Of a stretch of DNA of 64,000 nt, positions 49,167 through 64,000 are shown in pieces. Numbering within the stretch: position 1 is the first letter of the stretch; every line of letters starts with the position of its first letter. The notes under the pieces are model-generated. The model had not been told where the DNA came from. It made no database searches and saw only the letters and a program-made list of their open reading frames with translations. The stretch is from positions 7,098 through 71,097 of the forward strand of contig JAISUL010000005.1 in the NCBI GenBank assembly GCA_031272145.1. The letters are read 5' to 3'. Source of the DNA: Synergistaceae bacterium (GTDB lineage Bacteria; Synergistota; Synergistia; Synergistales; Aminobacteriaceae). The position numbers and the translations under genes are program-made.

Positions 49167-50345
49167 ATGCTAAAAAACTTTGGCGTTCTTAAGACGCCGG
49201 AGGCCAGGGTCGCGCTCATCTCTCTGGCGCACGGCATCAACGATATGTACGCGGCGTTCCTGTCCACGTTCCTCCCGTTCATCAAGGAGAACCTCGGCCT
49301 GTCGTACTCGCTTGCCGGGAGTTTCAACGTCATAGTCGGATTCTTCCATATAATAGGCCAGCCGGTCATAGGCTACCTCAGCGACCGCATGAGGCGCCCC
49401 ATCCTTATGATGCTTGGGCCTATTTTCTGCGGCGTGGGGGCGATAATGCTGCCCAACACTCGGTCGTACTGGCCGACCATCTTCTTCGCCGGGATGTGGG
49501 GCCTAGGCAGCGCCCTCTACCACCCCCAGGGCAACGGCGGCATAGGCTACGTTGCCCGCCCCGAAAAACTCACCGGCGCCCTCACATGGTTCAACATCGG
49601 CGGGATGCTCGGCGGGATGCTGAGCCCGCTGGTGGCCGTCGGAGTCGTGCATTTTTGGGGCTACAAAGGGCTCTTCGTGACGCTCATACCGGCCGTCATG
49701 CTGAGCGCGCTCATATTCTTCTCGATGCCGCTCCTGAGGCAGGACGTCGGCACCCACCGCGCCGGCCTCGTCAGGACTCTGGGCAGCTTGTTCAAATCCC
49801 TCTACCCCCTGTGGGTGGTCGCCGCGACGCGCGACCTGCTGTTCCAGTGCGTGCGCTTCTTCCTCCCGATGAAGATAGTCGCGGAGGGAGGCGACCTTGC
49901 CGCGGTCGGCTTGGTCGTGTTCCTGACGACGTTCGGCGGGACGGTGTCGATGCCGTTCGCGGTCGCGGCGGCGCGGCGGATAGGGGACTCGCGCACGATC
50001 TTCCGCAGCCTCCTGCTGGGCTTTATGGTGATGACGGCCGGGGGATTCGTGTCCGGCTGGTGGGTTGTGCTGTTCTACATCACGGGGCTTTCGTGCGTCT
50101 ACTCCACTCTGTCGATAACGAGCGCGATGGCGCAGCGCCTGATGCCCGACGAGCGCAGCGCCGGAAGCTCGATAGTGACCGGCCTGGCGTGGGGCGTGAG
50201 CAACATCCTCATACTCCCGTTCGGCGGCCTGGCCGACCTGGTGGGGATAGACATGTCGCTGGTTATCACGAGCATGCTGCCGCTGATTCCACTGCCGTTC
50301 TTCTTCATGAAGATGCGGGCGCTGCAGGACACGCGGAGGCCGTAG
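49167..50345 (+). CDS. MFS transporter
   Basis: 392 aa with ~12 TM helices and the MFS loop motif GYLSDRMRRP. Confidence 0.85.
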   Translation: MLKNFGVLKTPEARVALISLAHGINDMYAAFLSTFLPFIKENLGLSYSLAGSFNVIVGFFHIIGQPVIGYLSDRMRRPILMMLGPIFCGVGAIMLPNTRSYWPTIFFAGMWGLGSALYHPQGNGGIGYVARPEKLTGALTWFNIGGMLGGMLSPLVAVGVVHFWGYKGLFVTLIPAVMLSALIFFSMPLLRQDVGTHRAGLVRTLGSLFKSLYPLWVVAATRDLLFQCVRFFLPMKIVAEGGDLAAVGLVVFLTTFGGTVSMPFAVAAARRIGDSRTIFRSLLLGFMVMTAGGFVSGWWVVLFYITGLSCVYSTLSITSAMAQRLMPDERSAGSSIVTGLAWGVSNILILPFGGLADLVGIDMSLVITSMLPLIPLPFFFMKMRALQDTRRP

Positions 50346-50346
50346 G

Positions 50347-50374
50347 AGGCGCTCGATCAAAGGCGCTCGATCAA
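50347..50374. repeat. perfect 2 x 14-bp tandem duplication (AGGCGCTCGATCAA)
   Basis: 50347-50360 equals 50361-50374. Intergenic, 1 nt after the MFS stop. Confidence 0.95.
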
Positions 50375-50403
50375 AAAAGGGCCTCGCGGGATTCGCGAGG
50401 CCC
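50373..50403 (-). terminator. rho-independent terminator after the ankyrin gene (left island boundary)
   Basis: Hairpin GGGCCTCGCG-GGATT-CGCGAGGCCC with a T-run on the minus strand. Confidence 0.6.
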
Positions 50404-50429
50404 TGCCCCTACTGACTCAGCGACGCGCG

Positions 50430-51395
50430 CTAACCCTTCACGGCCTTTATCAGCTCGGCCATGGCGGGGGTGCATTGCAAGGTCTTGTTCTTGGCAGAGT
50501 GGGAGAGGATGCCCTCGCCGTTGCAGTCCCGCACTTTGGGGTCGGCACCGGCGTTGAGCAGGAGGGGTATTACCTCAGGGTTGCGGTTGGACATAGCGGC
50601 GCACATCAAAGCCGTCCAGTCAACATTGCTCTTAGCGTTGACGTCCGCTCCGGCATTGAGCAGGATGGAGAACGCCTCAAGACTGGTGTTGGATATGGCG
50701 GCCCTGATCAGGGCTGTCCAGCCGTACTTGTCCTTGGCGTTGACGTCTATCCCGGCATCGATCAGGACGGAGAGCACCTTAGGGTTGCGATTCTCGCCGG
50801 CGGCGGACATCAAGATTGTCCCGCCGTCCATGTTCTTCGCGTGGATGTCCGCCCCGGCCTTGATCAGGACGGAGAGCACCTCAGGGTTGTCGTTGTCCTT
50901 GGCGGCGCACAGCAAGACCGACCACCCGTACTTGTTCTCGGCGTTGACGTCCGCCCCGGCCTTGATCAGGGTGGAGAGCACCTCAGGGTTGCTGTTGAAC
51001 TTGGCGGCGTATATCAAGGCTGCCGCACCAGTGTCTTCATTCTTAGCTTCGATCTCTGCCCCGGCCTCGAGCAGGGCGGAGACCACCTCAGGGTTGCTGT
51101 TGAACCCGGCGGCCAACATCAAGGCTGTCATGCCGCCCTCGCCCTTTGCATTGACGTCTGCCCCGGCCTCTATGGCCGCTTTGACATCCTTGGGAGTGCC
51201 GCTGGAGGAAGATACCCAAAGCCGCTGATTAGCATCGTAGTCTGCCCGTGCTTCCGTCCCCAAAAAAACCACGCAAATCCCCCCTAAAAATAACTTGGGG
51301 CCTCTCGACCCCCGGGCCTGCGGCGCTTGTGGACTGCTTCGGCAGACCGCCCATCCCTCATTTCGGATTCTATCGCACCGAACATAAAAAATCAA
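50430..51395 (-). CDS. ankyrin-repeat protein; native start codon and half of the signal peptide deleted
   Basis: About 8 ANK repeats (G.TALM.AA..N.NPEV...L..AGADVNAK). Residues ...LFLGGICVVFLGTEARADYD align with the signal peptide of the 55277 copy. A ~40-bp deletion removed the RBS and ATG. The only upstream ATG (51395) adds a non-signal 46-aa extension. Confidence 0.65.
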   Translation of the reverse strand: MIFYVRCDRIRNEGWAVCRSSPQAPQARGSRGPKLFLGGICVVFLGTEARADYDANQRLWVSSSSGTPKDVKAAIEAGADVNAKGEGGMTALMLAAGFNSNPEVVSALLEAGAEIEAKNEDTGAAALIYAAKFNSNPEVLSTLIKAGADVNAENKYGWSVLLCAAKDNDNPEVLSVLIKAGADIHAKNMDGGTILMSAAGENRNPKVLSVLIDAGIDVNAKDKYGWTALIRAAISNTSLEAFSILLNAGADVNAKSNVDWTALMCAAMSNRNPEVIPLLLNAGADPKVRDCNGEGILSHSAKNKTLQCTPAMAELIKAVKG

Positions 51396-51437
51396 GGGGG
51401 GCGTTGGGCGGAGTGCGAAAATGCCCCCATGAACCCC

Positions 51438-51466
51438 TTGACAACTGGGCTCCGAAGTGGTATACT
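51438..51466 (+). promoter_or_regulatory. strong sigma70 promoter P1 (extended -10)
   Basis: TTGACA (51438-51443), 17-nt spacer ending in TGG, TATACT (51461-51466). Part of the repeat element 51343-51488. Confidence 0.65.
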
Positions 51467-51543
51467 TAGTATACCTAGTTCAGGAGGCAATACGTTGAGC
51501 GTCAGATTATTGGAAGGCAGCTATAGTTAGGAGGCGGTTTGCG

Positions 51544-51828
51544 ATGGCGGTTAGGGTTCACATTGTTACACCTGAGGAAGAGGCTAAGGAGGAGCGGGCG
51601 AAGACGATAGGTCTTTTGAACTTCACCATCTGCCTCGACATTATTGCTTTTGTTGTCGTTTATTTAGAGTCCGTCCAGAGTGGCGTCTGGTATTGGCAAG
51701 TGTTTATCTGGACGGTGACTATCGGCGCCGGGGTTGTGCTAGCCAGCTTGAGCAAGGTATTTCGTACCATACTGGCCTATGCTTTCGTTCTTTGGGCGGG
51801 GTGGCTCACCCTTACTGGAGGCATGTAA
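51544..51828 (+). CDS. small membrane protein
   Basis: 94 aa. AGGAGG SD 8 nt upstream. 3 hydrophobic helices. Downstream of P1. Confidence 0.55.
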   Translation: MAVRVHIVTPEEEAKEERAKTIGLLNFTICLDIIAFVVVYLESVQSGVWYWQVFIWTVTIGAGVVLASLSKVFRTILAYAFVLWAGWLTLTGGM

Positions 51829-51838
51829 TATACCGTCG

Positions 51839-51875
51839 AAAAAAGGCCTCGCGGGTACTCCGCCCCGCGAGGCCT
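51839..51875 (-). terminator. rho-independent terminator (minus strand; hairpin shared with the + gene)
   Basis: AGGCCTCGCGGG-8 nt-CCCGCGAGGCCT, with an A-run on plus that is a T-run on minus. Confidence 0.6.
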
Positions 51876-51920
51876 TCATAATTAAATCCCGACATATCCT
51901 AACCGTTCTTTTCGATAATC

Positions 51921-52781
51921 CTATCCCTTGAGGGCGTCGATCAGGGCGGATAGCACTGGAATATTGCTGTGCTTGGCGGCGTACATCAGGGGCGTCCAGC
52001 CGTCGCTGTTCTTCGCCCCGGCGTCCGCTCCGGCGTCGAGCAGGGCGAGGATCACGGGGGCGTTGTCGTCCATGGCGGCACACAGCAAGGCCGTCCAGCC
52101 GGCATTGTTCTCCGCGTTGACGTCGGCTCCGGCGTTGAGCAGAGCGGCGATCACGGGGATGTTGTTGTACTTAACGGCGTACAGCAGGGCCGTACAGCCG
52201 GCATTGTCCGCCGCGTTGACGTCGGCCCCAGCGTTGAGCAGGGCGGCGATCACGGGGGTGTTGTCGTCCCTTGCGGCGTACAACAACGCCGTCTGGCCGG
52301 CATTGTCCTTCGCGTTCACGTTTGCCCCGGCGTTTAGCAGGACGGAGATCACCTCAGGGCTGCTGTCGTACCGCACGGCGCACAACAACGCCGTCCAGCC
52401 TAGTAAATTGCCCCTCGCGTTGACGTCTGCCCCGGCGTCTAGCAGAACGGAGATCACCGGGGCGTTGTTGTGCTTGGCGGCGCACAACAGGGCAGCCATG
52501 CCGGCAGCGTCCTTCGCGTTCACGTCGGCTCCGGCGTCGACGGCCTCCTGAACCTCCTGTGGGGTGCCGGTTTTGCAGAGCGCGGCGAAATCCTCCGCGC
52601 TCATCCTTCCGGCCTCGGCGCAGCCTTCCCGCTCGTCCTTCGGCTTCGGCGCGGCAGGCTCGCTCGGCGGCGCGTAAATCGCCATGCTATCCTGTAAGAT
52701 GCGATCCAGCTTCGCCTCTAGTTCGGCCTTGAACTCCTTCCACGGGACTGTAAGCATTTGCAGCCTCTCCTTTGTACTCAT
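51921..52781 (-). CDS. ankyrin-repeat protein (cytoplasmic, coiled N-terminus)
   Basis: 286 aa. No signal peptide. About 6 ANK repeats after an EDFAALCKTGTPQEVQEAVDAGADVNAKD cap. Confidence 0.85.
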   Translation of the reverse strand: MSTKERLQMLTVPWKEFKAELEAKLDRILQDSMAIYAPPSEPAAPKPKDEREGCAEAGRMSAEDFAALCKTGTPQEVQEAVDAGADVNAKDAAGMAALLCAAKHNNAPVISVLLDAGADVNARGNLLGWTALLCAVRYDSSPEVISVLLNAGANVNAKDNAGQTALLYAARDDNTPVIAALLNAGADVNAADNAGCTALLYAVKYNNIPVIAALLNAGADVNAENNAGWTALLCAAMDDNAPVILALLDAGADAGAKNSDGWTPLMYAAKHSNIPVLSALIDALKG

Positions 52782-53611
52782 CGAGTCGCCGCCCTCAGCG
52801 CGGCGAGGGCGGCGGTATTCTCCAATGCCTTGTTACGGACGGCGTAGTCCAGGGCTTTGTTGCCGCCGGCGTCCTTTGCGTTGGCGTCGGCCCCGGGCCT
52901 GAACAGGTCGGCCTTGAACAGCAGGGCGGAGACCGCGTCGGGGCCGTTATGCGCGGCGGCAAGCATCAAAGCCGTGACGCCGCCCTCGCCCCTTGCCTCG
53001 ACATCTGCCCCGCCTCTGATAAGGGCGGAGAGCACGTCGGGGTTGCCGTTGTGCTGCGCGGCGAGCATCAATGCCGTAAAGCCGTCCTTGTTTTTCGCCT
53101 CGGCGTCTGCCCCGCGCCTGAGCAGGATGAAGGGCACGTCAGGGTCGCCGTTGAACTGCGCGGCCAACATTAAAGCCTTAACGCCGTCCTTGTTCTCCGC
53201 GTTCACATATGCCCCGGCGTCTATGGCCTCCTGAACCTCCTGAGGCGTTCCGGTTGCGCACGTCTCTAGGAAGTTCTTCGCTTTGCCGGTCTTAAAAATC
53301 TTCTCCAGCGCGGCGAAGTCGTCGGTGCTAGTTAAAACTCCGTCGATCAATGCTGACAGCACGTCGGAGTTGTCGTTATGCTCGGAGGCTAGCATCAAAG
53401 CCGTCCAGCCGTCCTTGTCCTCCGCGTTCACCTTGGCCCCTGCGTTGAGAAGGACTGAGATCACGTCCGCGCTGCCGTTGAAGGCGGCGGCGTACATCAG
53501 CGGCGTCCTGCCGCTCTCCTTGTCACGCGCGTTGACGTCGGCTCCGGCATAGATGGCATCCTGAACCTCCTGAGGCGTTCCGGCTCTGCACAGCGCGGCG
53601 AAATCCTCCAC
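52778..53611 (-). CDS. ankyrin-repeat protein (cytoplasmic)
   Basis: 277 aa with a GTG start. Two cap-plus-repeat blocks. 4-nt overlap with the downstream ANK gene. Confidence 0.85.
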   Translation of the reverse strand: MEDFAALCRAGTPQEVQDAIYAGADVNARDKESGRTPLMYAAAFNGSADVISVLLNAGAKVNAEDKDGWTALMLASEHNDNSDVLSALIDGVLTSTDDFAALEKIFKTGKAKNFLETCATGTPQEVQEAIDAGAYVNAENKDGVKALMLAAQFNGDPDVPFILLRRGADAEAKNKDGFTALMLAAQHNGNPDVLSALIRGGADVEARGEGGVTALMLAAAHNGPDAVSALLFKADLFRPGADANAKDAGGNKALDYAVRNKALENTAALAALRAATR

Positions 53612-53636
53612 GTCTTACGGCCTCCTATAACTGCCC

Positions 53637-54341
53637 CTACTCCCGCTGGCCGCGGCGTTTCGCGTTGTTGCGGATGTCGTCGAGGTCGGAGGACTCGATG
53701 ACGCCAGTCCTGCGAAACTTCCTCATGGTCTTGTCCATCGTCTTGAAGTTCGCGTCTACGCCGTCGCGGTCGGCCATCCAGTTGGCCGTTCTGTCCGCGC
53801 CTATGCCGACGCGGCGAGCGGTGCGCACGGCGTCGATGTTGGCACCGAGGAAGATAAACTCCCAGCCCGCCGCCTTCTGACGCTCGATCATCGCCTTGAC
53901 CTGCTCAGCGGAGTACTCGCGGCTGCTGTTTTCCTCGCCGTCCGTGATGATGACGAACATCACTTTCTCAGCGCGCTCGCCTTCCTCCGTTTGCGACTGG
54001 GTGTTGCTGACCTTGTTGATCGTCATCCCAATCGCATCAAGAAGCGCGGTGTTGCCTCCCGCCTGATACTCCTGTTCCGTGATCGGGCGGACTGACCCGA
54101 TGGGAACGCTGTCGTGGAGCAGCGTGTAGTTTGTGTCGAACAAAACCGTCGTGACGCGGCACTCGCCGTCGGACGCGTCGGGGGTGAATATCCCCTCGGA
54201 GGTGATTATCATGTCAGGCGGCACCGTCTCTCGCTGCTGGGCAAGCATTGAGTTGTAGCCTCCGATGGTGTCGGACTCCAAGCCGCTCATGGAGCCGCTT
54301 TTGTCGAGAATGAACACCAGTTCCGTTAAACCTTTTTTCAT
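53637..54341 (-). CDS. vWA domain protein
   Basis: ATG 54341 follows a GGGGGG SD; 234 aa. MIDAS DKSGSMS, GNTALLD and ITDGEENSS. First gene of the vWA-ANK-ANK operon. Confidence 0.85.
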   Translation of the reverse strand: MKKGLTELVFILDKSGSMSGLESDTIGGYNSMLAQQRETVPPDMIITSEGIFTPDASDGECRVTTVLFDTNYTLLHDSVPIGSVRPITEQEYQAGGNTALLDAIGMTINKVSNTQSQTEEGERAEKVMFVIITDGEENSSREYSAEQVKAMIERQKAAGWEFIFLGANIDAVRTARRVGIGADRTANWMADRDGVDANFKTMDKTMRKFRRTGVIESSDLDDIRNNAKRRGQRE

Positions 54342-54460
54342 AGTGAAACCCCCCATATAAAAGCCAAAGTAAAGTCCACCGGCGCAGACCGCCGTACCCA
54401 AGAACACCGCACAAATCCCTGCCGAAACAACCCGCGCAAAATCTACATACTAACCCCTCC
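54342..54460 (-). pseudogene. decayed ankyrin-type RBS, start and signal-peptide remnant upstream of the vWA gene
   Basis: Minus strand reads AGGAGGGGTTAGT ATG TAG ATT TTG CGC GGG ... and aligns with AGGAGGGGTTAGT ATG GTG AGT TTG CGC AGG of the copy at 55277. Stop at codon 2. Confidence 0.55.
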
Positions 54461-54590
54461 TATTCGGGGAAGGGGTTGCCAATCCCAAGCAGACCACTCA
54501 TCCCTCATATCGAATTATATCACACCGAACACAAAAAATCAAGTGGAACATGAGGGGCGGAGGTGCGAAAATATGACCCCCATGACCCCC

Positions 54591-54619
54591 TTGACAACTG
54601 GGTTCCGAAGTGGTATACT
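54591..54619 (+). promoter_or_regulatory. strong sigma70 promoter P2 (extended -10), paralog of P1
   Basis: TTGACA (54591-54596), 17-nt spacer ending in TGG, TATACT (54614-54619). Part of the repeat element 54490-54643. Confidence 0.65.
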
Positions 54620-54694
54620 TAAGTTACGCCACGTTCAGGAGGCGGTGCTGGCGTCCGTGGCGGCCAACGTTTGTTTAGAGAGGATGTGTTAGTT

Positions 54695-54910
54695 ATGTTG
54701 ACGGTGTCCCGTGAGGAGTTCGAGGCTGAGGAAGCGCGGATTAAGGACTTGGAGAAAATCTCGCCTATGTTTGCGCATGACTTGTGGAACCAGTACGTTG
54801 AGTTGGTGACCGTGCCTAACCCGCCGGAGCTTGACGCCAAGATCAGGCGATACATTAGGCGCCAGCTTTTTCCGGGGAGGCAGCTGATGTTGGAATGGCC
54901 AACATCTTGA
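54695..54910 (+). CDS. small hypothetical protein downstream of P2
   Basis: 71 aa from ATG 54695 (GAGAGGA upstream). Soluble, charged. No homology recognised. Confidence 0.35.
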   Translation: MLTVSREEFEAEEARIKDLEKISPMFAHDLWNQYVELVTVPNPPELDAKIRRYIRRQLFPGRQLMLEWPTS

Positions 54911-55055
54911 GCAATATTGCACCGCCGGCCACTTGCATGGACGCGTTTATCTGCCCGAATACGAACCGCGGCAGGAGGCGCTGCGGCACGGGAGTATAGG
55001 GGAAGTGAATCCCATGAAGATGATAAAGCAGCAGCCCCCGCGCCGCGTGCGAAGT

Positions 55056-55277
55056 AGGGTTGCTGCTGTATCTGGCAGCGTACATCAAGGCTGTCCAGCC
55101 GTCGTCCTTGTCCTTCGCCTTGACGTCGGCCCCGGCCTCAATAGCCGCCCTGACCTCCTCTGGGGTGCCACCAGCGCACAACTTCAAAAACGCCTCGTTA
55201 TCGTAGGCGCCGTACGCAACCGTCCCCAAGAACACCACGCAAACCCCCGCCAAAACCAGCCTGCGCAAACTCACCAT
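55056..55277 (-). pseudogene. truncated ankyrin-repeat gene (signal peptide + first repeat only)
   Basis: MVSLRRLVLAGVCVVFLGTVAYGAYDNEAFLKLCAGGTPEEVRAAIEAGADVKAKDKDDGWTALMYAARYSSNP. ANK similarity then stops, and the rest of track ORF 54855..55277 is unrelated. Confidence 0.6.
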
Positions 55278-55354
55278 ACTAACCCCTCCTAAATACTCGG
55301 GGAAGGCGCTCTCCGCACCCTCCCCGGCCCGTGGCGTCCGTGGACTGCGTTCCC

Positions 55355-57250
55355 CTACGCCGGTATGCTAGTCTCGTCCTTGAACTCCGGTATGCTAGCC
55401 TCGCCCTTGAGGAACCTCGTGATCAGGCCTATGAACTCTCGATCGCGATCGTAGACGTCCTCCTTGCGCCATTCGTGGATGACCTCGCCGTTGATCGTCT
55501 GCATATACCGCGTATCCTGCTCGGCCAAGTCCCACACGTCGGCTATCTTGGAGGGGTCGACCCCGGGTAGAGGTTTTTTGGGGGCCTTGGCGTAGTAGTT
55601 AGCCCGTTTAAACTCGAACGCGCCATTAGAAGCCTTGGTGTTCAGAGGTGCCTCGATAACCACCTTGTTTCCAAAAAGCTCCATGCACGCATTGGCATCC
55701 GCATCAGTCCAGTATTGAGAGTAGGCCTGTCTCCACTTCTTGGGGAGGATGTGCTCGATCGAGAACGGTCGCAGCTGCTCTTCCTGCTCCTTGTTGAGAT
55801 ATGCATGGAGAAGCAGGAAGACCTTGTCGAGCTTTGAACTCGGCGCGCTGCACTGCCTGAGCGCCTCGTCCGTCGGAATCTTTGGAGCGAAGATCGTGTT
55901 GAGCACCTCAGCCGTCGGATTCTTAGGAGCGTCAGGGCCGCCTACTAAATCGGCGCACTTCTTGACGAGCTCACCCCTAAGACTCACGCCGTGCTTCTCG
56001 AGGTACGCACAGCACATGAAGGCCAGCAGCTTCTCCAAAAAGAGGCAAAACTGCTCGTCGGAATAGCTGGTGCGCATATAGTTTATGAAAAACACGCTCA
56101 CTGCGTACCGCCATATTTCGACGGGGTAACAAGAAAAGCAGTGGAGGTATTTCCGAGCCCGGCGCGAAATGGAGTAGCCCTCAGCTTCGTCAGGGTCACT
56201 GCCGTAGACGTGTCCCCAGAACTTGGCCAGCGCCATAATGTTGTCCATAAGGTCAGGCTCTCGCAGATGCTCGTAGTTTTTGTCCGTGTAAAATGGACGC
56301 AAACCAGGAACAGTGGTATCCCTGTAGTTTGCACGAGCAAGAAGGACGTACATGTAATAGCGGAATATGTCGTTGATCGTGAAATCGTCGGGGTTGGACA
56401 CCGCATCTTTACACTTCGCGGAGAGTCGCTTCCATTGCTCAATGAAGTCCTTCTCGCGCCCCTCGGTTTTCTTAAAACCGTACAAATACGCCTTGAAGAC
56501 ATCGGAGTCTGTCAGAGGCTGCCCTCGATCGCTCATCCGGCTGAAGATCGTCAATGCCATATCTGTTGATGGACACTCGACGGGCAAGACGATGCATCGC
56601 CGCAGAAGCAAGCCGCAAAGCTTGTCCCAGTTCGGCTCGCTCTCGGCAAGTTTGTCGCAGCGCTCTCGGAAACGAAGGTAGTTCTTCGAGTAATTGTCCG
56701 TAGGTTTCGCGTCCTTAGCGTTAGCGTTTTGATCCGCCTCGCCGGTGCTGCCGGTGCTAAGTATGTTCACGAATATCTTCCAGTGGTCGTCAGCCACGGC
56801 ACGTGACTCGATGCGCACCCTGCTTGAATCGAGAACCTTCCCCGAATCAGGGTCAGTATGCCAAATACATGCCGCCATATCCCGCAGCAGTTGAGCAACG
56901 GCCGCTTTTGCGTCAGGGTTAAGCTGAGCATCCTCCAGCTTCTTGTAAAACATCCGAAGCATAAGGAGAAGCGACGTTATCCTTTGCTGACCATCAACGA
57001 TCTCCCAGACGCCCCTGCCGGGTTCGCGTTCGCTGACTACGCGTTCGCTGACTACGATAGTGCCGAGAAAATACTCATCATTTTCTCCAGCCTGTCGCCA
57101 GAACTCGACGATGTCATCCCAAAGCTGATCGCACGCGTCAGTATCCCAGGCGTACTCACGCTGGTACTCCGGAATGACGAATTGGCGCTCTCCCAAGAAA
57201 ACGCCAACTTTTTCCTTGAGCACAACAAGTGCTTTCACTGGCCCACTCAT
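55355..57250 (-). CDS. DUF262 + DUF1524 protein (GmrSD-type, putative type IV restriction / modified-DNA nuclease)
   Basis: ATG 57250; 631 aa. N-terminal DUF262 signature FVIPEYQREYAWD and DGQQR. C-terminal His-Me-like IEHILPKKW...LNTKASN. Visibly more AT-rich than the flanks. Confidence 0.85.
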   Translation of the reverse strand: MSGPVKALVVLKEKVGVFLGERQFVIPEYQREYAWDTDACDQLWDDIVEFWRQAGENDEYFLGTIVVSERVVSEREPGRGVWEIVDGQQRITSLLLMLRMFYKKLEDAQLNPDAKAAVAQLLRDMAACIWHTDPDSGKVLDSSRVRIESRAVADDHWKIFVNILSTGSTGEADQNANAKDAKPTDNYSKNYLRFRERCDKLAESEPNWDKLCGLLLRRCIVLPVECPSTDMALTIFSRMSDRGQPLTDSDVFKAYLYGFKKTEGREKDFIEQWKRLSAKCKDAVSNPDDFTINDIFRYYMYVLLARANYRDTTVPGLRPFYTDKNYEHLREPDLMDNIMALAKFWGHVYGSDPDEAEGYSISRRARKYLHCFSCYPVEIWRYAVSVFFINYMRTSYSDEQFCLFLEKLLAFMCCAYLEKHGVSLRGELVKKCADLVGGPDAPKNPTAEVLNTIFAPKIPTDEALRQCSAPSSKLDKVFLLLHAYLNKEQEEQLRPFSIEHILPKKWRQAYSQYWTDADANACMELFGNKVVIEAPLNTKASNGAFEFKRANYYAKAPKKPLPGVDPSKIADVWDLAEQDTRYMQTINGEVIHEWRKEDVYDRDREFIGLITRFLKGEASIPEFKDETSIPA

Positions 57251-57295
57251 AACTATACCCCTTTCCGGGTAATGGCCGAGAATTTGCAGATGATC

Positions 57296-57317
57296 CACAA
57301 GGTCTATTATAAGACAC
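57296..57317. repeat. third copy (19/22) of the 22-bp repeat, within the P4 leader
   Basis: CACAAGGTCTATTATAAGACAC versus CACAAGGTACATTATGAGACAC at 61766. Confidence 0.85.
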
Positions 57318-57350
57318 CGTCCCGGCCACCCCAATTTACTGACGTCAAAG

Positions 57351-57379
57351 ATTATACACCCAATCCGTAAAAAACGCAA
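57351..57379 (-). promoter_or_regulatory. sigma70 promoter P4 driving the DUF262/DUF1524 gene
   Basis: Minus strand: TTGCGT (57379-57374), 17-nt spacer, TATAAT (57356-57351). The leader AAATTGGGGTGGCCGGGACG (57337-57318) is identical to 62075-62094. Confidence 0.6.
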
Positions 57380-57539
57380 CCCCTTCCGTCGAGTTTCGAG
57401 CTTGCTTTTTCGGTCTGTCCCAACGGCGCGGGCAGTGACCCCTCCCCTACTCCTGAGGTATCTATCCCGTAGGTCGGCATGCTACCAAGCATACCTCGAT
57501 CCTGTCTGGCGCAACGTCTATATCCATGCATCAAAACAG

Positions 57540-59390
57540 CTAAAAATTTTTCACCACGTTCCAGTCCGCCACTGCCTGGGCGAGTGCTTTTGCAGCATCC
57601 ACGCCTTTGGGCGTCAAAGCGTCACGCGCTAACATAATTTCCTGTCGACAGCGCGTGACGGCTGAGAAGTAGGTACGCAGCTGGTTTTCTATACCTGCCT
57701 TGTAAGACAGGTATTTAGCGCGTATTTCATCTACGTCCTTCTGGCTAACCGTAGGTGCCTGGCTTTGTCTAAATCCCTCTGCGCACTTCTCGCGCCACAC
57801 CATCAGCCGTTTCGTTCGTACTGGCCCAAAGCCGCGTATCGCGCGAATCTTGTCCTCGGATACGTCCGCTGCCGTCGTGACACCGTGAGAGTAGAGAGTA
57901 GCCCTCAGTGAGCCGGTACTAGTGCCATAACTGCCCTTAAGGTACTCCTTATTAACGGCATCATCTAGCGAAAACGCCCTCAGAAACTTTTCTAGCTGCG
58001 CTCTTGAATCCGTACTGAGCGCGTTAATCTCGCGTTGCTCCTGCTGCATAAGTTCCACGTATTTGCCATGGAGTTTGTCTGCGGCCTCGCGAATATCCAG
58101 AAACCTACGCCGAGATGCCGTCTGATCCCACTGTGCCTTAAGGCCATCGTAGTGCTTTTGCGCGTCCTTGAGAGCTAGCTCGCGGCGTCTACGCACGGTG
58201 GCAACACCTACCCTAGGGCACGGTGTTGGGGTAACGCTGATCCTTTGCCAGTCGGGGAAATCAGCGCTCGGCGGCACCGGTACGGCCTTAATCTTAGCCC
58301 ATATCTCATCAACGCCGACATCGGGGCTGGTGGGTTGTTCGGTTGTGTTCGGCGGAAACATAAGTACACCTTGGCGCTCCAAAGCACACCACGGACACTC
58401 AGCGGCGCCCTTGGGGTAGACGTGCGACCTCCACACGTCACATTCCTTTAGCCCGTCGCAAAGGTCTTTCAGCGCGTGGTACCACTCCAGAGCGGTCGGA
58501 CGGCATTTCACTCCGTCTTCGGTAAACGCCCGCTCGAACATTGCCACCATATTTGACGGCAGCATAGATACTGGAATAGTCCCTTTGGGCGGTGCTATGC
58601 CACGAGACCTAGCATCTCTAGCATAAGCGTAACGGAACTCTTTTATCTTCTCTTCAAGCAGTTCCCCGATGCCAGCTCTCAAAGTGACACCAGCGTACGG
58701 ATGCCGTCCACAGAACAGCAAGTGAAATATGAGTATGGCAAGCCCAAAGTTATCGTGATTTTGGGTTCGTGTAATGTTGCTAAAAGATTTGCCCTGAAGC
58801 TCAGGCGGCGTGAAATTACCGACGCCGACTTCGCACAGATGCCATACGCCGTTGACCTTGATCTGAAAGGAATCGGCGTCGATGAGAACCACCTTGTCGT
58901 CGTACAATGCCTTTTGGTTATTCCAAGCTAAAGCATTGCCTTCGTTGACGTCGCCTATCACGTGTGCATTCTTGTGCATACCATAAAACGCGCCGGCCGT
59001 GCTCAGCGCGACGCGAAGCAAAAAACTCCACTTCGCGCCGGGCCTTGCTGCCATACGATCGCGAGGATTGTAAAGTTTGTGAAGAGGCGTGAGATTCCCG
59101 AAATTGGGCATCAAGAATCCCACGATGGGACCGCCGCGCCTTTCGCACAGCGTAGCAGTCGGCCACGCCGAAACCTCGCTAAGCTCTTTATTCGCGTGGG
59201 TCGCCATGAAATTCAACTTAGCTTGTTTGGCCGCGTTTGGCAACCGATTGGGGTGATAGATCTTAGCCACCATGCCACGGTGAGCTGGAACTGCTCCGAC
59301 CCAACCCTCTCCGCCAACACCTATTGGCTTGTCATCGATCTCAACCTGTGCACCGGCCGAGGTATAATAAAGTTTAAGCACCACAAGCAC
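57540..59390 (-). CDS. Ser/Thr protein kinase-like protein with C-terminal helix-hairpin-helix (TerY-P kinase)
   Basis: 616 aa. Kinase-like GVGGEG...VAKIY, catalytic HVIGDVNEGN, LIDADSF. C-terminal HhH IRAIRGFGPVRTKRL. Start codon (GTG region) uncertain. Confidence 0.8.
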   Translation of the reverse strand: MLVVLKLYYTSAGAQVEIDDKPIGVGGEGWVGAVPAHRGMVAKIYHPNRLPNAAKQAKLNFMATHANKELSEVSAWPTATLCERRGGPIVGFLMPNFGNLTPLHKLYNPRDRMAARPGAKWSFLLRVALSTAGAFYGMHKNAHVIGDVNEGNALAWNNQKALYDDKVVLIDADSFQIKVNGVWHLCEVGVGNFTPPELQGKSFSNITRTQNHDNFGLAILIFHLLFCGRHPYAGVTLRAGIGELLEEKIKEFRYAYARDARSRGIAPPKGTIPVSMLPSNMVAMFERAFTEDGVKCRPTALEWYHALKDLCDGLKECDVWRSHVYPKGAAECPWCALERQGVLMFPPNTTEQPTSPDVGVDEIWAKIKAVPVPPSADFPDWQRISVTPTPCPRVGVATVRRRRELALKDAQKHYDGLKAQWDQTASRRRFLDIREAADKLHGKYVELMQQEQREINALSTDSRAQLEKFLRAFSLDDAVNKEYLKGSYGTSTGSLRATLYSHGVTTAADVSEDKIRAIRGFGPVRTKRLMVWREKCAEGFRQSQAPTVSQKDVDEIRAKYLSYKAGIENQLRTYFSAVTRCRQEIMLARDALTPKGVDAAKALAQAVADWNVVKNF

Positions 59391-59409
59391 CTCCGAAATT
59401 CAATGCCAA

Positions 59410-60192
59410 CTACGCCATGCGGCACGCTAGAGCCAGCGTCTTGTCGTCGTCCGTACGACTATTGACGTTATCGCAGTCCAAGAAGTCAAGCAAGTCCGTA
59501 TAAAGCTCCCGCTCTCTTCCATGCTGTTTAGCCAACAGCATGTCAAAAAGCCGCCTAAAAAAGGGTTGATGCGGTAGCGGCGGTGCGTTCCTAAAATCCA
59601 GAGCCAGCCTTTCTAGACCGTCAGTGAACATCGCGACGTGGAGAGGCTTACGATGCTCAAAGACCCTGGTCCGCAATATGCCAAGCGCGTTATCGTCTGT
59701 GACGAAGTGTGTACTGTTGGCGTACTCACCATGCATAGGCGGAATGGCGAGCTGCAGCCCTAACCCGTTATCTACCTCGAACACAATGGCACCATCTCCG
59801 ATCTGCATGAACAATGCCACGTTCATGTAGCAAACGGCACCGAGAAACGTGGTCGCGAAGTCCTTATGCCGTAGGCCAAGATCATCAGCTTGTCGGAAGA
59901 TTCGAGCGCGAACCTCATTGACGCAGTCGAACGCTACGCTCTCCCAATCTTCGAGCAAAGCGAAACCTTCCTCTGCGCGCCTCTTGATAAACAGATTGGC
60001 AGTGTGCACAGCCCGCTCGGCGCCATCTGCACCCCGCGCTGCGCTACCAGCGCCGTCAGCTACGAACATGGACAATACTGGCCATCCGGAGGCTGCTACT
60101 CGCTCTCGAACGCAGTAACAGTCTTCGCAAGGTTTATTAACGTGCTTATGCGACACCCCCACGGATGACGCAGCAACTGTCGCCCACGTCAT
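59410..60192 (-). CDS. PP2C-family protein phosphatase (TerY-P phosphatase)
   Basis: ATG 60192 overlaps the upstream stop (ATGA); 260 aa. VADGAGSA, QIGDG and MFTDGL motifs. Confidence 0.75.
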   Translation of the reverse strand: MTWATVAASSVGVSHKHVNKPCEDCYCVRERVAASGWPVLSMFVADGAGSAARGADGAERAVHTANLFIKRRAEEGFALLEDWESVAFDCVNEVRARIFRQADDLGLRHKDFATTFLGAVCYMNVALFMQIGDGAIVFEVDNGLGLQLAIPPMHGEYANSTHFVTDDNALGILRTRVFEHRKPLHVAMFTDGLERLALDFRNAPPLPHQPFFRRLFDMLLAKQHGRERELYTDLLDFLDCDNVNSRTDDDKTLALACRMA

Positions 60193-60854
60193 CTCACGAT
60201 GCAGTCCTTGGGCGAAGGCGGCAAAACATCCGCGCCGGGCGTCGACGTCGAGGCACCCACCGAATTCCCAAGCCACTTGAACAATTCCTGGAATTTCAAT
60301 CCATCCAGCTTCAGCGGCTCTCGGATGCTGATCTGTTGTAATATATCCATGTTAGCGTCCATGACCCCAACAGCATAAAAAATGAACGCTTTCGCGTCTT
60401 CCCCTGTTTTTACTAAATCAGAGACAGAATACCAGTCGTCTGTGGGTTCGCCGTCGGTGACGAGGAATATCCACGGGCGGTAGTACGCGATACCGTTCTT
60501 CCTGTATATCCCCTTGCGTTCCTTCACGAGTCGGATCGCCTCGCTAATGGCCTCGCCCATCGGCGTGAGACCGCCAGCGGTTAGTATCGGAGGCTCAAAC
60601 CGCTCAGCTTCAGTGAACGGCATTTTGAGCACCACCGCTTCTCCAAACGTCACGATAGCCACCTCGACCCGCTTCATAGCGACAGGGTAGTCGACAAGAG
60701 CATCTTTGAACGTCGTCAATCCAGCGTTCAGCTCGTCGATAGGCTGGCCGACCATGGACTCTGAAACGTCGAGAAGCAGAACGCAAGGACACCTAGGTTC
60801 AGGGTTCCCGGCGAAATCGTCATCGGATGCAATCGTGCTCGCCCTTCGTGTCAT
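60189..60854 (-). CDS. TerY/YegL-type vWA protein, copy 2
   Basis: 221 aa. [25 protein letters not shown] and VTDGEPTD. Confidence 0.85.
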
Positions 60855-61525
60855 ACCGTTGCCCAGCCCTTAGGAGAAGATAGTTGGACATCTGTCCCTG
60901 GAGTCGAGCTCGACACGCTCCGCAGCGACGCCGAGAGCCACCGAAACAGCTCTTGAAACTTCAGCCCCTCCAACATAAGCGGCTCGCGCACGCTGATCTG
61001 CCGCAAGACCTCCATGTCGGCACCCTTAACAGCGATGGCAAAGAAGCTGAACTCCTTCCTCTCCTCTCCAGCTTGCACGGCATCAGGGACAGAGTCCCAT
61101 GCGTCGTTGGGCTCGCCGTCGGTTATGAGGAATATCCACGGGCGGTAGTACGCGATACCGTTCTCTTTATATATCTCCTTGCGTTCCTTCACGAGTCGGA
61201 TCGCCTCACCGATGGCAGCACCCATCGGCGTAAGACCGTTGGCGGTCAGACTCGGCGGCTCGAAGCCATCGGCATCGGTGAATGGCATCGCGAGCGTCAC
61301 CGCCCCCCCAAACGTCACTATGGCAACCTCGACCCGCTTCCTAGCGAGAGCATCGGCAGCGATTTCCTCTTTGAACGTAACCAACCCAGCGTTCAGCTCA
61401 CCGATAGGCTGGCCTGCCATTGAACCTGAAACATCAAGAAGTAGAACGCATGGACATCTCGGCTCAGGGTTGGAAGCAAATATATCATCGCTCGCCAGAG
61501 TCTCGAGCTGTTCGTCCATAGCCAT
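60851..61525 (-). CDS. TerY/YegL-type vWA protein, copy 1
   Basis: ATG 61525 follows a GGAGGTG SD; 224 aa. [25 protein letters not shown] and ITDGEPND. Confidence 0.85.
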
Positions 61526-61765
61526 TTCCGCACCTCCATACACGATACGCTAGTTTTCAGAACTAGCACAAAACCATAGGTGACTAAAGCACCATCGCCA
61601 GACCTCCGCACATGCACTATGTCGAGCCCCCACTCTAGCTCGCCGCGAAACTGACGTTGCGATGCTCCACTAACCCTAAGTGCCCTTGGGGCGGGGCGCG
61701 GAGGCCCCTGCAGTCCCCTAAACTCCGCGTTGTTCCTTGGAATGGCTTAGGGTCTCACAATGAAC

Positions 61766-61787
61766 CACAAGGTACATTATGAGACAC
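61766..61787. repeat. 22-bp inverted repeat, left arm (CACAAGGTACATTATGAGACAC)
   Basis: Exact reverse complement of 62095..62116. Confidence 0.95.
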
Positions 61788-62032
61788 GCCCTAATCCCTA
61801 TGGCCAGCCCCCCAGTTTTGCCAGCTTGAACTTCGCGAGCGAGTAGGGGGAGTCCGGAGGATGGCCGAGGGCAGAGCAAGAGGCAGGTCAGGGGCAGGCC
61901 GGCCTCCCGGAGGGCGCTTCCGAAAAAAAATCCCCGACCCACCCAGGAGTAGGGGAGGGGATAGGGGAGCGCCGTTGGGAGATTGGGGGGGGGTGAATTT
62001 TAGAAAAGTTGAAAGATTGTGTATGAAAGGGG

Positions 62033-62059
62033 TTGCATTTTCCATGAACATGGTATACT
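62033..62059 (+). promoter_or_regulatory. extended -10 promoter P3 inside the repeat-bracketed segment, pointing away from TerY-P
   Basis: TTGCAT (62033-62038), 15-nt spacer ending in TGG, TATACT (62054-62059). Followed by a leader homologous to the P4 leader. Confidence 0.55.
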
Positions 62060-62094
62060 ATACCAGGCATCAGGAAATTGGGGTGGCCGGGACG

Positions 62095-62116
62095 GTGTCT
62101 CATAATGTACCTTGTG
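62095..62116. repeat. 22-bp inverted repeat, right arm
   Basis: GTGTCTCATAATGTACCTTGTG is the reverse complement of 61766..61787. Confidence 0.95.
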
Positions 62117-62230
62117 TACGCTCCACGAAGCTCAAGTCATACCGAGGCTTCCCGCACAGTTTAACATTGCGCTGGTGCCCTGGCTCCCGCAGCTAGGACT
62201 CTTTCCCACTGCCAAGCTGCGCAGCCACAG

Positions 62231-62269
62231 CAAAAATAGCCCCGCGGGGTACTCTACCCCCCGCGAGGC
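62231..62269 (-). terminator. rho-independent terminator after the PPIase gene (right island boundary)
   Basis: Minus strand: GCCTCGCGGGG-GGTAGAGTA-CCCCGCGGGGC (11-bp stem with one G-U pair) followed by TATTTTTG. Confidence 0.65.
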
Positions 62270-62318
62270 CCTGCCTGCGGACTCAGGCTACCGCTGCCCC
62301 CCGTCACGAACCAGCGCT

Positions 62319-63182
62319 CTACGAATCCGCCTTCTTCTCCACCTTGTACCGCTTCTTCAGCTCCTCAAGGACGCTCTGGTACTTCTCGCCCTTCTTCTCG
62401 TTGGTCAGGAACTGGATGATCTGCGCCTTCACGTCCTCATAGGGCGTCAGGGCGGCGGGCTTCTTCTCCTCCAGCTTGATGATGTGCCAGCCAAAGGCGC
62501 TCTTCACCGGCGCGGACACGTCGCCGGGCTTCTCTAGGGCGAAGGCCGCCTCCTCGAACTCCGGCACCATCTGGCCCTTGCCGAAGAAGCCAAGGTCGCC
62601 GCCGTTCGCAGCCGAGCCAGGGTCCTTCGAGTACTCGATGGCCACTGCGTCGAACGACGCGCCGTCCTTGAGCTTGCCCTGCACTTCCTCCACCTCGGCC
62701 TTGGCGTCGTTGTCGCCGCTCAGCAGGATGTGCCGAACCCTGATCTGCTCAGGCGTGGTGAACCTGTCCTTGTGCTCGTCGTAGAACTTCTTCGCATCGG
62801 CGTCCGAAACCTTGACGTCCTTCAGAGCCTCGTCGATGTCGGTCTTCGCCAGAGCCTGAGTGCGGAAGTTCGCCATCAGCTCCTTGAAGCTAGCTGTGTC
62901 GGCCAGCCCGCGCTTCTCCCCGTCCAGAGCGAACAGCCTCACGGCTATGAGCTCGTCGAGGATCGCGGCCCGCCCCTGCTCGTTGTCGTAGACCATGGTG
63001 CCCTGAGGCCCCATCGCGGTTATGACCTTGTCGACGTCGCCGGCTTTGATCTCCTGCCCCTCGACCACGGCCAAGACCTTGTCCGCCGACACAGCCGCCT
63101 CAAGCGGCGAGGCGAGCGCCCCAAGCCCAAGGATCAGAACCAAGGCCACCAAAGACGGAATAAACTTTCTTGTGCTGCCCAT
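62319..63182 (-). CDS. parvulin-type peptidyl-prolyl isomerase (PrsA/SurA-like), secreted
   Basis: Signal/anchor FIPSLVALVLILGLGALA. PpiC domain with RVRHILL and FGWHIIKLEEKK. Start at ATG 63182 (alternatives 63200 and 63227). Confidence 0.8.
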   Translation of the reverse strand: MGSTRKFIPSLVALVLILGLGALASPLEAAVSADKVLAVVEGQEIKAGDVDKVITAMGPQGTMVYDNEQGRAAILDELIAVRLFALDGEKRGLADTASFKELMANFRTQALAKTDIDEALKDVKVSDADAKKFYDEHKDRFTTPEQIRVRHILLSGDNDAKAEVEEVQGKLKDGASFDAVAIEYSKDPGSAANGGDLGFFGKGQMVPEFEEAAFALEKPGDVSAPVKSAFGWHIIKLEEKKPAALTPYEDVKAQIIQFLTNEKKGEKYQSVLEELKKRYKVEKKADS

Positions 63183-63316
63183 ACTCAAACGACCTTTCAT
63201 AAGGCTGAATTGTGAAGCTCGGCGCATTCTATCACAAAGCGCCCGCCTCGAAGAGCGTTTTGCGTTGTATTCCTCACACGAAATAACGTAAAATTTGAGG
63301 ACAAGGGGGTGCTTTC

Positions 63317-64000
63317 ATGCGCGGATATTCGCGTATCGGTATCAGAAATGCTGGCAAAAAAATTTTTATGGCTTTGACTCTGGCCGCGGCGTGCCTTTTC
63401 TCGGCTGCGGCGTGGGCAGCGGACGTCCCGATGAGAGGCGACGACTTCCGAGTCGACCTCAAGGACGACGCGTACGTGGGGGCAGAGGTCACCCTGTTCC
63501 TGTCCGGCTGGCGCACCGAGGAGACCGGCGTCTACTTTGAGTGGTCGATCGAGGGCAACACGAGGTCGATGACGCTGCGCGGGAACGGGGCCGAGTGCCG
63601 CTTCATTCCCTGCGACACGGAGCCCGTCGCCGTGTCGGTCTTGGCTCGGAGCGCGAGCGGGCAGACCTTGGCCGACGCCGCGCTGCTCCTGACCGCCAAG
63701 GAGTTCACCGTTAACATAGTCAAGGTCGAGTCGCCGAAGATAGTCCTTTGGGATTCCGAGGCGAAGAAGGACGTCGAGGTGGACGGCATAGTCATAGGCG
63801 AGCCAGCCGTGTTCGAGGCGAGGCTTACGCCGGCGTACAGGGGCAGGCTGACCTCCAGCTGGAGCACCGACGCTATGACGGCCATCGTGGAGGAGGAAGG
63901 GGTGCGCATCACGGTCGAGCGCGGCGACGTCGGCGACATGGAGCTGGCAGTGTCCCTGGCCGACGACAAGGGGTTCCCACTTGGGCACGCGTCCGGCAGG
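63317..64000 (+). CDS. secreted hypothetical protein (partial; continues beyond window end)
   Basis: ATG 63317 follows an AAGGGGG SD. Own translation MRGYSRIGIRNAGKKIFMALTLAAACLFSAAAWAADVPMRGDDFRVDLKDD... has no stop through 64000. Absent from the track because it is open-ended. Confidence 0.6.
   Translation, partial: MRGYSRIGIRNAGKKIFMALTLAAACLFSAAAWAADVPMRGDDFRVDLKDDAYVGAEVTLFLSGWRTEETGVYFEWSIEGNTRSMTLRGNGAECRFIPCDTEPVAVSVLARSASGQTLADAALLLTAKEFTVNIVKVESPKIVLWDSEAKKDVEVDGIVIGEPAVFEARLTPAYRGRLTSSWSTDAMTAIVEEEGVRITVERGDVGDMELAVSLADDKGFPLGHASGR

Follow-up and report, generated by a model that had tools for sequence, protein, structure and literature searches.

Five co-oriented minus-strand open reading frames (ORFs) occupy positions 55355-61525 of a 64,000-nucleotide stretch of DNA from a Synergistaceae bacterium (contig JAISUL010000005.1; the whole stretch is hereafter called the window), and the first four carry the components of a TerY-phosphorylation (TerY-P) triad in which the gene for the vWA protein TerY is present twice. 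In the order of transcription, the operon comprises TerY1 (60851-61525; 224 amino acids (aa), with its ATG at 61525), which is a YegL-type vWA protein (Pfam VWA, 7.6e-11), its tandem paralogue TerY2 (60189-60854; 221 aa; VWA, 6.5e-10), a PP2C-type Ser/Thr phosphatase (59410-60192; 260 aa; PP2C_2, 3e-38) and a YegI-type Ser/Thr kinase (57540-59384; 614 aa, with a GTG start at 59384). A GmrSD-family type IV restriction protein (55355-57250; 631 aa, with its ATG at 57250; GmrSD_N, 2.9e-34, and GmrSD_C, 2.3e-12) is encoded farther downstream. A preliminary description of this DNA had placed five genes at these coordinates. All of the ORFs are present, and domain searches agree with that description except for the kinase: hmmscan recovered VWA, PP2C, GmrSD_N (DUF262) and GmrSD_C (DUF1524), whereas Pkinase and HHH were absent from the kinase even at E=10.

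ATGA overlaps at the TerY1/TerY2 and TerY2/PP2C junctions couple these three genes translationally. The kinase gene, which had been counted as a fourth coupled gene, is instead tightly spaced, with 25 nucleotides (nt) between the PP2C stop codon and its GTG and a GGAGG sequence 5 nt before that codon. This GTG start yields the 614-aa product, which is on record in a public protein collection; an exact-protein look-up of TerY1 found no record. An independent assembly, Logan contig L101 (SRR14710912), is 100% identical to window positions 57378-60405 over 3 kb, and it ends at the start of a repeated promoter module (see below) and inside TerY2, presumably at repeats.

The same three protein families occur in the same order in the yegL-pphC(yegK)-yegI genes of Escherichia coli K-12. 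Identity to E. coli YegL is 65% for TerY1 and 57% for TerY2, the phosphatase is 44% identical to PphC (E 2e-61), which dephosphorylates YegI (10.1101/303594), and the kinase is 37% identical to YegI across its full length (E 2e-123). Because the vWA, PP2C and kinase proteins resemble YegL, PphC and YegI, the operon is assigned to the YegL-PphC-YegI type of TerY-P triad, and we hold this assignment, together with a lineage-specific duplication of TerY, to be highly probable. The elements that define a triad are all found in the one operon, namely a vWA protein with an intact metal ion-dependent adhesion site (MIDAS), a PP2C phosphatase and a Hanks-type kinase with its catalytic residues. The earlier designation as a TerY-phosphorylation triad of the kind described by Anantharaman, Iyer and Aravind is thus borne out in the comparative-genomics sense. 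Two features of the YegL-PphC-YegI group are not retained: the full kinase architecture, from which a membrane hairpin has been deleted, and the single vWA gene, of which there are two here. The locus also differs from that of E. coli by the lack of a yegJ insert, by a degenerate first hairpin in the helix-hairpin-helix (HhH) region of the kinase, and by its setting in a low-GC accessory island, beside a GmrSD gene and behind a candidate invertible promoter. The module is known and very common, and what sets this copy apart is the doubled sensor, the soluble kinase and the candidate switch.

The tandem TerY genes

TerY1 and TerY2 share 68% protein identity, 71% DNA identity and a common N-terminal start, in line with their earlier description as paralogues. 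The MIDAS is intact in both copies, as DVSGS in TerY1 and DVSES in TerY2, with TPMG and TDGEP conserved; a PDB sequence search with TerY1 gave no match. For comparison, 80 loci were taken from one-genome-per-species contigs via alignment of the kinase, and TerY, PP2C and GmrSD were located in them by tblastn. Exactly one TerY gene is present in 76 of these loci, none in four and two in none of them, and the tandem arrangement is accordingly as unusual as had been proposed. Three of the four loci that lack TerY seem to be interrupted by a contig end or a partial kinase match; the remaining locus (L019) does not. Because duplicated TerY-like VWA genes have been reported in some CoCoNuT type III-A operons (PMC11090510), the duplication is rare in this branch of the family and yet has a precedent.

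Maximum-likelihood analysis of 75 TerY proteins recovers TerY1 and TerY2 as sisters (support 100/98) and places the TerY of the other Synergistaceae genome that has the system (locus L085 of genome G105) in a different clade. The terminal branches measure 0.18 for TerY1 and 0.62 for TerY2, the latter being 3.4 times longer. Pairwise nonsynonymous divergence (dN) between the copies is approximately 0.23 and synonymous divergence (dS) is 1.1-1.7, for a dN/dS ratio of 0.13-0.22. A dS above 1 and a DNA identity of 71% date the duplication as old, and the latter value excludes an assembly artefact as its source. We conclude that the duplication is old and lineage-specific, and that both TerY copies are under purifying selection.

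At the 79 alignment columns where the other 73 TerY proteins show at least 95% conservation, TerY1 departs from the family at 5 and TerY2 at 10. The conserved Ser/Thr-rich C-terminal tail (WLS..VS..GW) is altered in TerY2, where WLS has become WLG, the Val is deleted and the terminal GW is replaced by DC. The loss of 10 of 79 family-conserved residues, the terminal GW included, and the 3.4-fold longer branch are what might be seen in a redundant copy heading for decay, in which case the duplication would carry no functional meaning. However, the ORF and MIDAS of TerY2 are intact, translational coupling is kept on both sides of the gene, and dN/dS is approximately 0.2 despite saturated synonymous divergence. 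Decay is therefore judged very improbable, and the pattern of change in the TerY2 sequence fits sub-functionalization or neo-functionalization better.

The YegI-type kinase and its deleted hairpin

The kinase matched no Pfam, NCBIfam or PADLOC model, E=10 included, and no PDB sequence. Typical family members likewise fall short of the threshold for Pkinase and HHH_5 (E 1e-3 to 2.5e-2 for HHH, which has no match in this kinase), and we therefore ascribe the hmmscan failure to family divergence rather than to missing domains. Of 2,919 homologues of the kinase, the ones named at source are annotated as 'DNA-binding helix-hairpin-helix protein with protein kinase domain'. An 18-sequence alignment reveals that the G-loop (GVGGEG), the VAK, HxxGDVN, IDxDSF, TPPE and HDNFGLA motifs, the RP of subdomain XI and a C-x5-H-x8-C-x2-C zinc-ribbon signature are all kept in the Synergistaceae protein. 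In E. coli, YegI undergoes autophosphorylation and has two essential residues, K39 and D141, and an important one, S162 (Rajagopalan and Dworkin, 10.1101/819920). These residues correspond to K43, D147 and S174 here (the published numbering is offset by 2 from the RefSeq protein) and all are conserved, so that the catalytic residues, on which the preliminary description had made its kinase call depend, are present on alignment.

A structural model generated by AlphaFold2 (mean predicted local distance difference test score, pLDDT, 73.7) gave 450 PDB matches at E<=1e-3 when searched with Foldseek. Every one of the 50 matches listed is a protein kinase structure, and for isolated kinase domains the target TM-scores lie mostly at 0.5-0.63. 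Full-length homology to YegI, retention of the catalytic residues and the predicted kinase fold together identify the product of the fourth gene as a kinase which, as judged from its sequence and model, is a Hanks-type Ser/Thr kinase of the active type. The order of domains is kinase domain, zinc ribbon, coiled coil, degenerate (HhH)2 and a long C-terminal helix. E. coli YegI has the same essential Lys and Asp and the same activating Ser, as well as a CxH..CxxC zinc ribbon, a coiled coil and a counterpart of the putative HhH region. In the model, the C-terminal half consists of a zinc knuckle followed only by helices. The first HhH hairpin is degenerate in the 18-sequence alignment, with STG in place of GVG and an 8-residue insert, whereas the second hairpin (GFG) and a TAAD motif are invariant among the aligned kinases. 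The earlier wording of a kinase-like protein ending in an HhH is thus correct as to the kinase, by homology, motifs and fold, but not as to the end of the protein, because a helix of approximately 65 residues lies beyond the HhH region in the model. As a separate observation, YegI of E. coli K-12 (L009) weakly matches two PADLOC models of kinase-type defence, PD-T4-6 (1.2e-4) and MkoA (3.4e-4), neither of which is matched by the Synergistaceae kinase.

The architecture departs from that of its relatives most clearly where the membrane hairpin is expected. The maximum of hydrophobicity (19-residue Kyte-Doolittle mean) is 0.5 in this kinase, compared with at least 1.95 in 119 of 119 other homologues among the matches listed, and the 18-sequence alignment has a clean deletion of approximately 50 residues at the position of the hairpin in homologues. 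In E. coli YegI, the same segment has been mapped experimentally as a two-pass membrane hairpin (10.1101/819920). Loss of this two-pass element leads us to predict that signalling is cytoplasmic, and a soluble kinase should be an easier subject for in vitro study than the membrane-bound YegI of E. coli.

Promoter modules and a candidate inverton

The region upstream of TerY1 carries two 22-nt inverted-repeat arms that are 100% complementary, the proximal at 61766-61787 (CACAAGGTACATTATGAGACAC on the plus strand) and the distal, its perfect partner, at 62095-62116. Between the arms lies a 307-nt segment (61788-62094) that is a candidate for inversion on the basis of its sequence, its alignment with a module upstream of GmrSD and a terminator scan. 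A promoter-like element on the plus strand near the distal end of this segment (TTGCAT at 62033-62038, a 17-nt spacer and TACTAT at 62056-62061) faces away from TerY1, and a terminator-like hairpin with a T-run on the minus strand (61948-61932) faces read-through from upstream. A 240-nt leader (61526-61765, minus strand) separates the proximal repeat from the TerY1 start codon, and its first approximately 40 nt are common to the leaders of other copies of the module. Because a promoter between perfect repeats faces away from the operon and a hairpin opposes read-through, expression is probably turned ON and OFF by site-specific inversion, with the 307-nt segment probably serving as the invertible switch. 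Under this arrangement, the TerY-P copy in the present assembly would be oriented OFF. Whether the TerY-P switch actively inverts we rate as an even chance.

The module upstream of GmrSD (57258-57459, minus strand) is complete and faces forward, with TTGCGT (57379-57374), a 17-nt spacer and TATAAT (57356-57351). It contains a single repeat-like site (57296-57317) that has no partner repeat, and its elements are ordered as promoter, repeat, leader and ATG. A longer TTG-initiated version of the GmrSD ORF runs into this repeated module, and the start is placed at the ATG (57250). Approximately 200 nt of module sequence are common to the two sites; before GmrSD they are fused into one forward-facing piece, in the orientation opposite to that at the TerY side. 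The 'shared promoter-leader module' of the preliminary description is therefore complete and forward-facing only before GmrSD; before TerY1, only the repeat and leader face the operon, and the promoter part is inverted. Further copies of the module are present on contigs C14, C93, C47 and C107.

Six repeat pairs (consensus GTGTCNNATAATNNACCTTGTG) occur in the genome, with arms 224-318 nt apart that co-vary within each locus. In addition to the window copy (61766-62116), these pairs are located at C14:11520-11813, C27:4500-4767, C47:19067-19360, C93:19971-20264 and C107:24604-24965. The 22-nt repeat motif was found 13 times in this genome, not at all in a reversed-sequence control and once in the 106 other genomes of the family. 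Genes preceded by the other pairs include an ankyrin/HSDR_N/GmrSD operon, an operon with NeuB and a cytidylyltransferase, and a He_PIG-domain protein with a signal-peptide-like N-terminus. By their sequence, the repeat pairs have the anatomy of a multi-locus inverton family. Known multi-locus invertible promoters include fimS of E. coli and the capsule invertons of Bacteroides fragilis. The present family resembles them in the short inverted repeats placed around a promoter segment of approximately 250-320 nt, in the use of one repeat consensus at several loci and in the presence of surface glycan and surface protein genes among the neighbours. It differs in that it is recognized from sequence anatomy, has no adjacent recombinase gene and includes two defence-type operons among the controlled loci. 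The genome encodes five tyrosine recombinases and no serine recombinase, which rules out a switch enzyme of the serine-invertase class. Metagenomes scanned for the inverted repeat joined to the TerY leader gave no match, and an Rfam scan of positions 50000-64000 returned nothing but one chance lncRNA match.

Two other promoters, both near consensus (TTGACA, 17 nt, TATACT), were noted on the plus strand at 51424-51468 and 54577-54621. These 45-nt elements are 96% identical to each other and point in the direction opposite to that of the ankyrin and vWA genes nearby.

Genomic setting, rival explanations and possible role

The GmrSD protein encoded 289 nt beyond the kinase stop codon (from 57540 to the ATG at 57250), close to the 290 bp proposed earlier, carries an N-terminal DUF262 with DGQQR and a C-terminal DUF1524 with IEHILP, both of which exceed the Pfam gathering threshold. 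Its best PADLOC match is HEC-06 (2.8e-40), followed by the Orf5 and SspE models, and its PDB sequence matches are DUF262 and SspE chains; the GmrSD-type designation is thereby confirmed. The protein resembles the type IV restriction enzymes GmrSD, BrxU and SspE in its DUF262 with DGQQR and its DUF1524 nuclease domain, but its best match is to a candidate model rather than to a characterized enzyme. It also differs from them by a 27-nt tandem duplication in the 3' end of the gene (55357-55410) that repeats the C-terminal ...SIP(E/A) peptide; this sequence is single-copy in a paralogue on contig C14, which is 52% identical and has no triad. As judged from sequence, the type IV restriction gene GmrSD is distinct from the triad and has a fixed promoter-module copy to itself.

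The block formed by TerY-P and GmrSD has a GC content of 54.4%, compared with 62.4% for the 2.05-Mb genome, in which 0.6% of 6-kb windows are as low. A YegI homologue is found in 2 of 107 Synergistaceae genomes, namely this one and G105. The low GC content, this distribution within the family and the placement of the other Synergistaceae TerY in a different clade indicate, at the level of sequence, that the operon was acquired horizontally. Elsewhere in the island, a third vWA gene (51921-54407), which is of a type unlike TerY, shares a tight operon with two ankyrin-repeat genes, and a truncated ankyrin gene is located at 54855-55277. Ankyrin repeats account for most of the direct-repeat families of the island.

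Taken together, we favour the reading, with a probability of approximately 0.6, that the locus is an acquired YegL-PphC-YegI triad with a doubled TerY, a soluble kinase, a switched promoter and a role in biological conflict. By analogy with the E. coli homologues, the kinase would autophosphorylate and be reset by the PP2C phosphatase. The TerY proteins may bind a ligand or a partner through their intact MIDAS and thereby gate the kinase, and the two diverged copies, acting as distinct sensors or as a TerY1-TerY2 heteromer, could widen or divide the sensing step. The zinc ribbon and HhH tail might place the kinase on nucleic acid, signalling would proceed in the cytoplasm, and inversion of the 307-nt segment would make expression phase-variable. 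Of the biological roles that could be served, conflict or anti-phage defence appears most likely because the block is low in GC, sporadic in distribution and next to a restriction gene, although we propose defence only tentatively, at slightly below even odds.

Several observations weigh against this composite reading. TerY1, TerY2, the phosphatase and the kinase match no PADLOC model at E<=10, and a literature search recovered no paper that ties yegI-type triads to phage defence. Of the 80 comparable loci, only 2 have a GmrSD-like gene no more than 8 kb from the kinase; both are from Klebsiella, with the gene several kb off. At the candidate switch, no recombinase gene adjoins the repeats, as established by locating the recombinases of the whole genome. 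All five loci with a full module are in the same 'away' orientation, which could also mean that the element is fixed, and the promoter hexamers are consensus matches only, which the promoter scanner did not call. The flipped form was not seen, and no other assembly covers the switch, Logan contig L101 stopping at the repeated module. Lastly, 2 of 60 scorable genome loci, both cyanobacterial, also encode a kinase without the hairpin. These two kinases (L074 and L083, from Spirulina subsalsa and Leptolyngbyaceae) are 613 aa long, and their loss of the hairpin is apparently independent. The hairpin-less kinase is therefore not unique but represents a minority variant.

The preliminary description had equated the operon with the anti-phage TerY-P system of Gao et al. 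(2020), and a bona fide member of that validated system should protect likewise against T7-like phages, on which TerY-P is described as acting (PMC7699616). Like the Gao et al. system, a presumed phosphorylation switch, the operon combines vWA, PP2C and Ser/Thr kinase proteins, and the low-GC island and adjoining restriction gene would suit such a membership. However, PADLOC-DB does include a TerY model (PDLC02224), and its models for this system miss both the present operon and the E. coli proteins, with YegL reaching only E=0.032 and PphC matching nothing. Moreover, in the modules validated against phage the kinase is fused to an OB fold, and classical triads carry a zinc ribbon, according to Bell et al. 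(PMC11090510); the kinase here has a zinc ribbon, beyond which the coiled coil and HhH half is all-helical. The equation is thus not upheld, and membership in the validated system is quite improbable. Because of the PADLOC mismatch, the lack of an OB fold and the lack of a link in the literature, any defence label follows from context and not from family membership. The triad described in 2012 by Anantharaman, Iyer and Aravind, as portrayed in PMC11090510 and PMC4978471, resembles this locus in that a TerY-like vWA protein, a PP2C phosphatase and a Ser/Thr kinase bearing a C-terminal zinc ribbon are encoded near restriction and DNA-processing genes. Of the contexts of that triad (CoCoNuT/McrBC, WXG100-FtsK and the ter operon), none is found at this locus.

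A second question is whether the neighbourhood has any bearing on function. The triad and GmrSD could form one system, in which the restriction enzyme is licensed or held back by the kinase or phosphatase and both parts are co-expressed through read-through from the TerY-P promoter. The genes are co-oriented, a minus-strand terminator scan of the 289-nt gap found no terminator-like site, and PMC11090510 and PMC4978471 report TerY-P triads beside DNA-processing and restriction modules. Yet GmrSD has a complete promoter module of its own, its C14 paralogue is not accompanied by a triad, and the pairing is so rare among the 80 loci (none by strict and two by relaxed tblastn) that GmrSD is ruled out as a conserved partner. 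A single functional unit is consequently highly improbable, and the adjacency looks like co-location in a defence island rather than a conserved partnership. At the other extreme, the operon might be a stress or physiological signalling module, for example for metal, envelope or DNA-damage sensing, with no link to phage and with GmrSD beside it through chance insertion in a variable region. This possibility draws on the E. coli orthologues, which have housekeeping genes around them and have been characterized only as a kinase/phosphatase pair, on the 78 of 80 homologous loci that have no GmrSD-like neighbour and on the early association of TerY-P triads with tellurite and stress responses (PMC11090510). 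Set against these points are the sporadic presence of the operon (2/107 family genomes), its atypical GC content and a switch family with further members upstream of a second GmrSD operon and of surface-variation genes; sporadic distribution, atypical GC and association with a switch are hallmarks of accessory, conflict-related genes. We therefore regard a stress module as rather unlikely, and retain the reading of an acquired, switched triad with a conflict role.

The most specific form of that reading, which in its entirety is unlikely, would be a phase-variable, cytoplasmic, YegI-type anti-phage sensor-kinase with two TerY sensors or a TerY heteromer, under the control of an inverton family to which a second restriction operon and genes for surface structures are also subject. 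If this were true, bet-hedging by DNA inversion would reach kinase-based immunity in Synergistaceae. The locus also exposes a labelling trap, in that a vWA protein, a PP2C phosphatase and a kinase alone do not make a locus part of the validated TerY-P defence family. E. coli K-12 and thousands of other genomes carry the YegL-PphC-YegI module, which has no known biological role, and the island, the restriction enzyme and the apparent ON/OFF switch observed here may provide a testable pointer to a conflict or defence role for the family as a whole.

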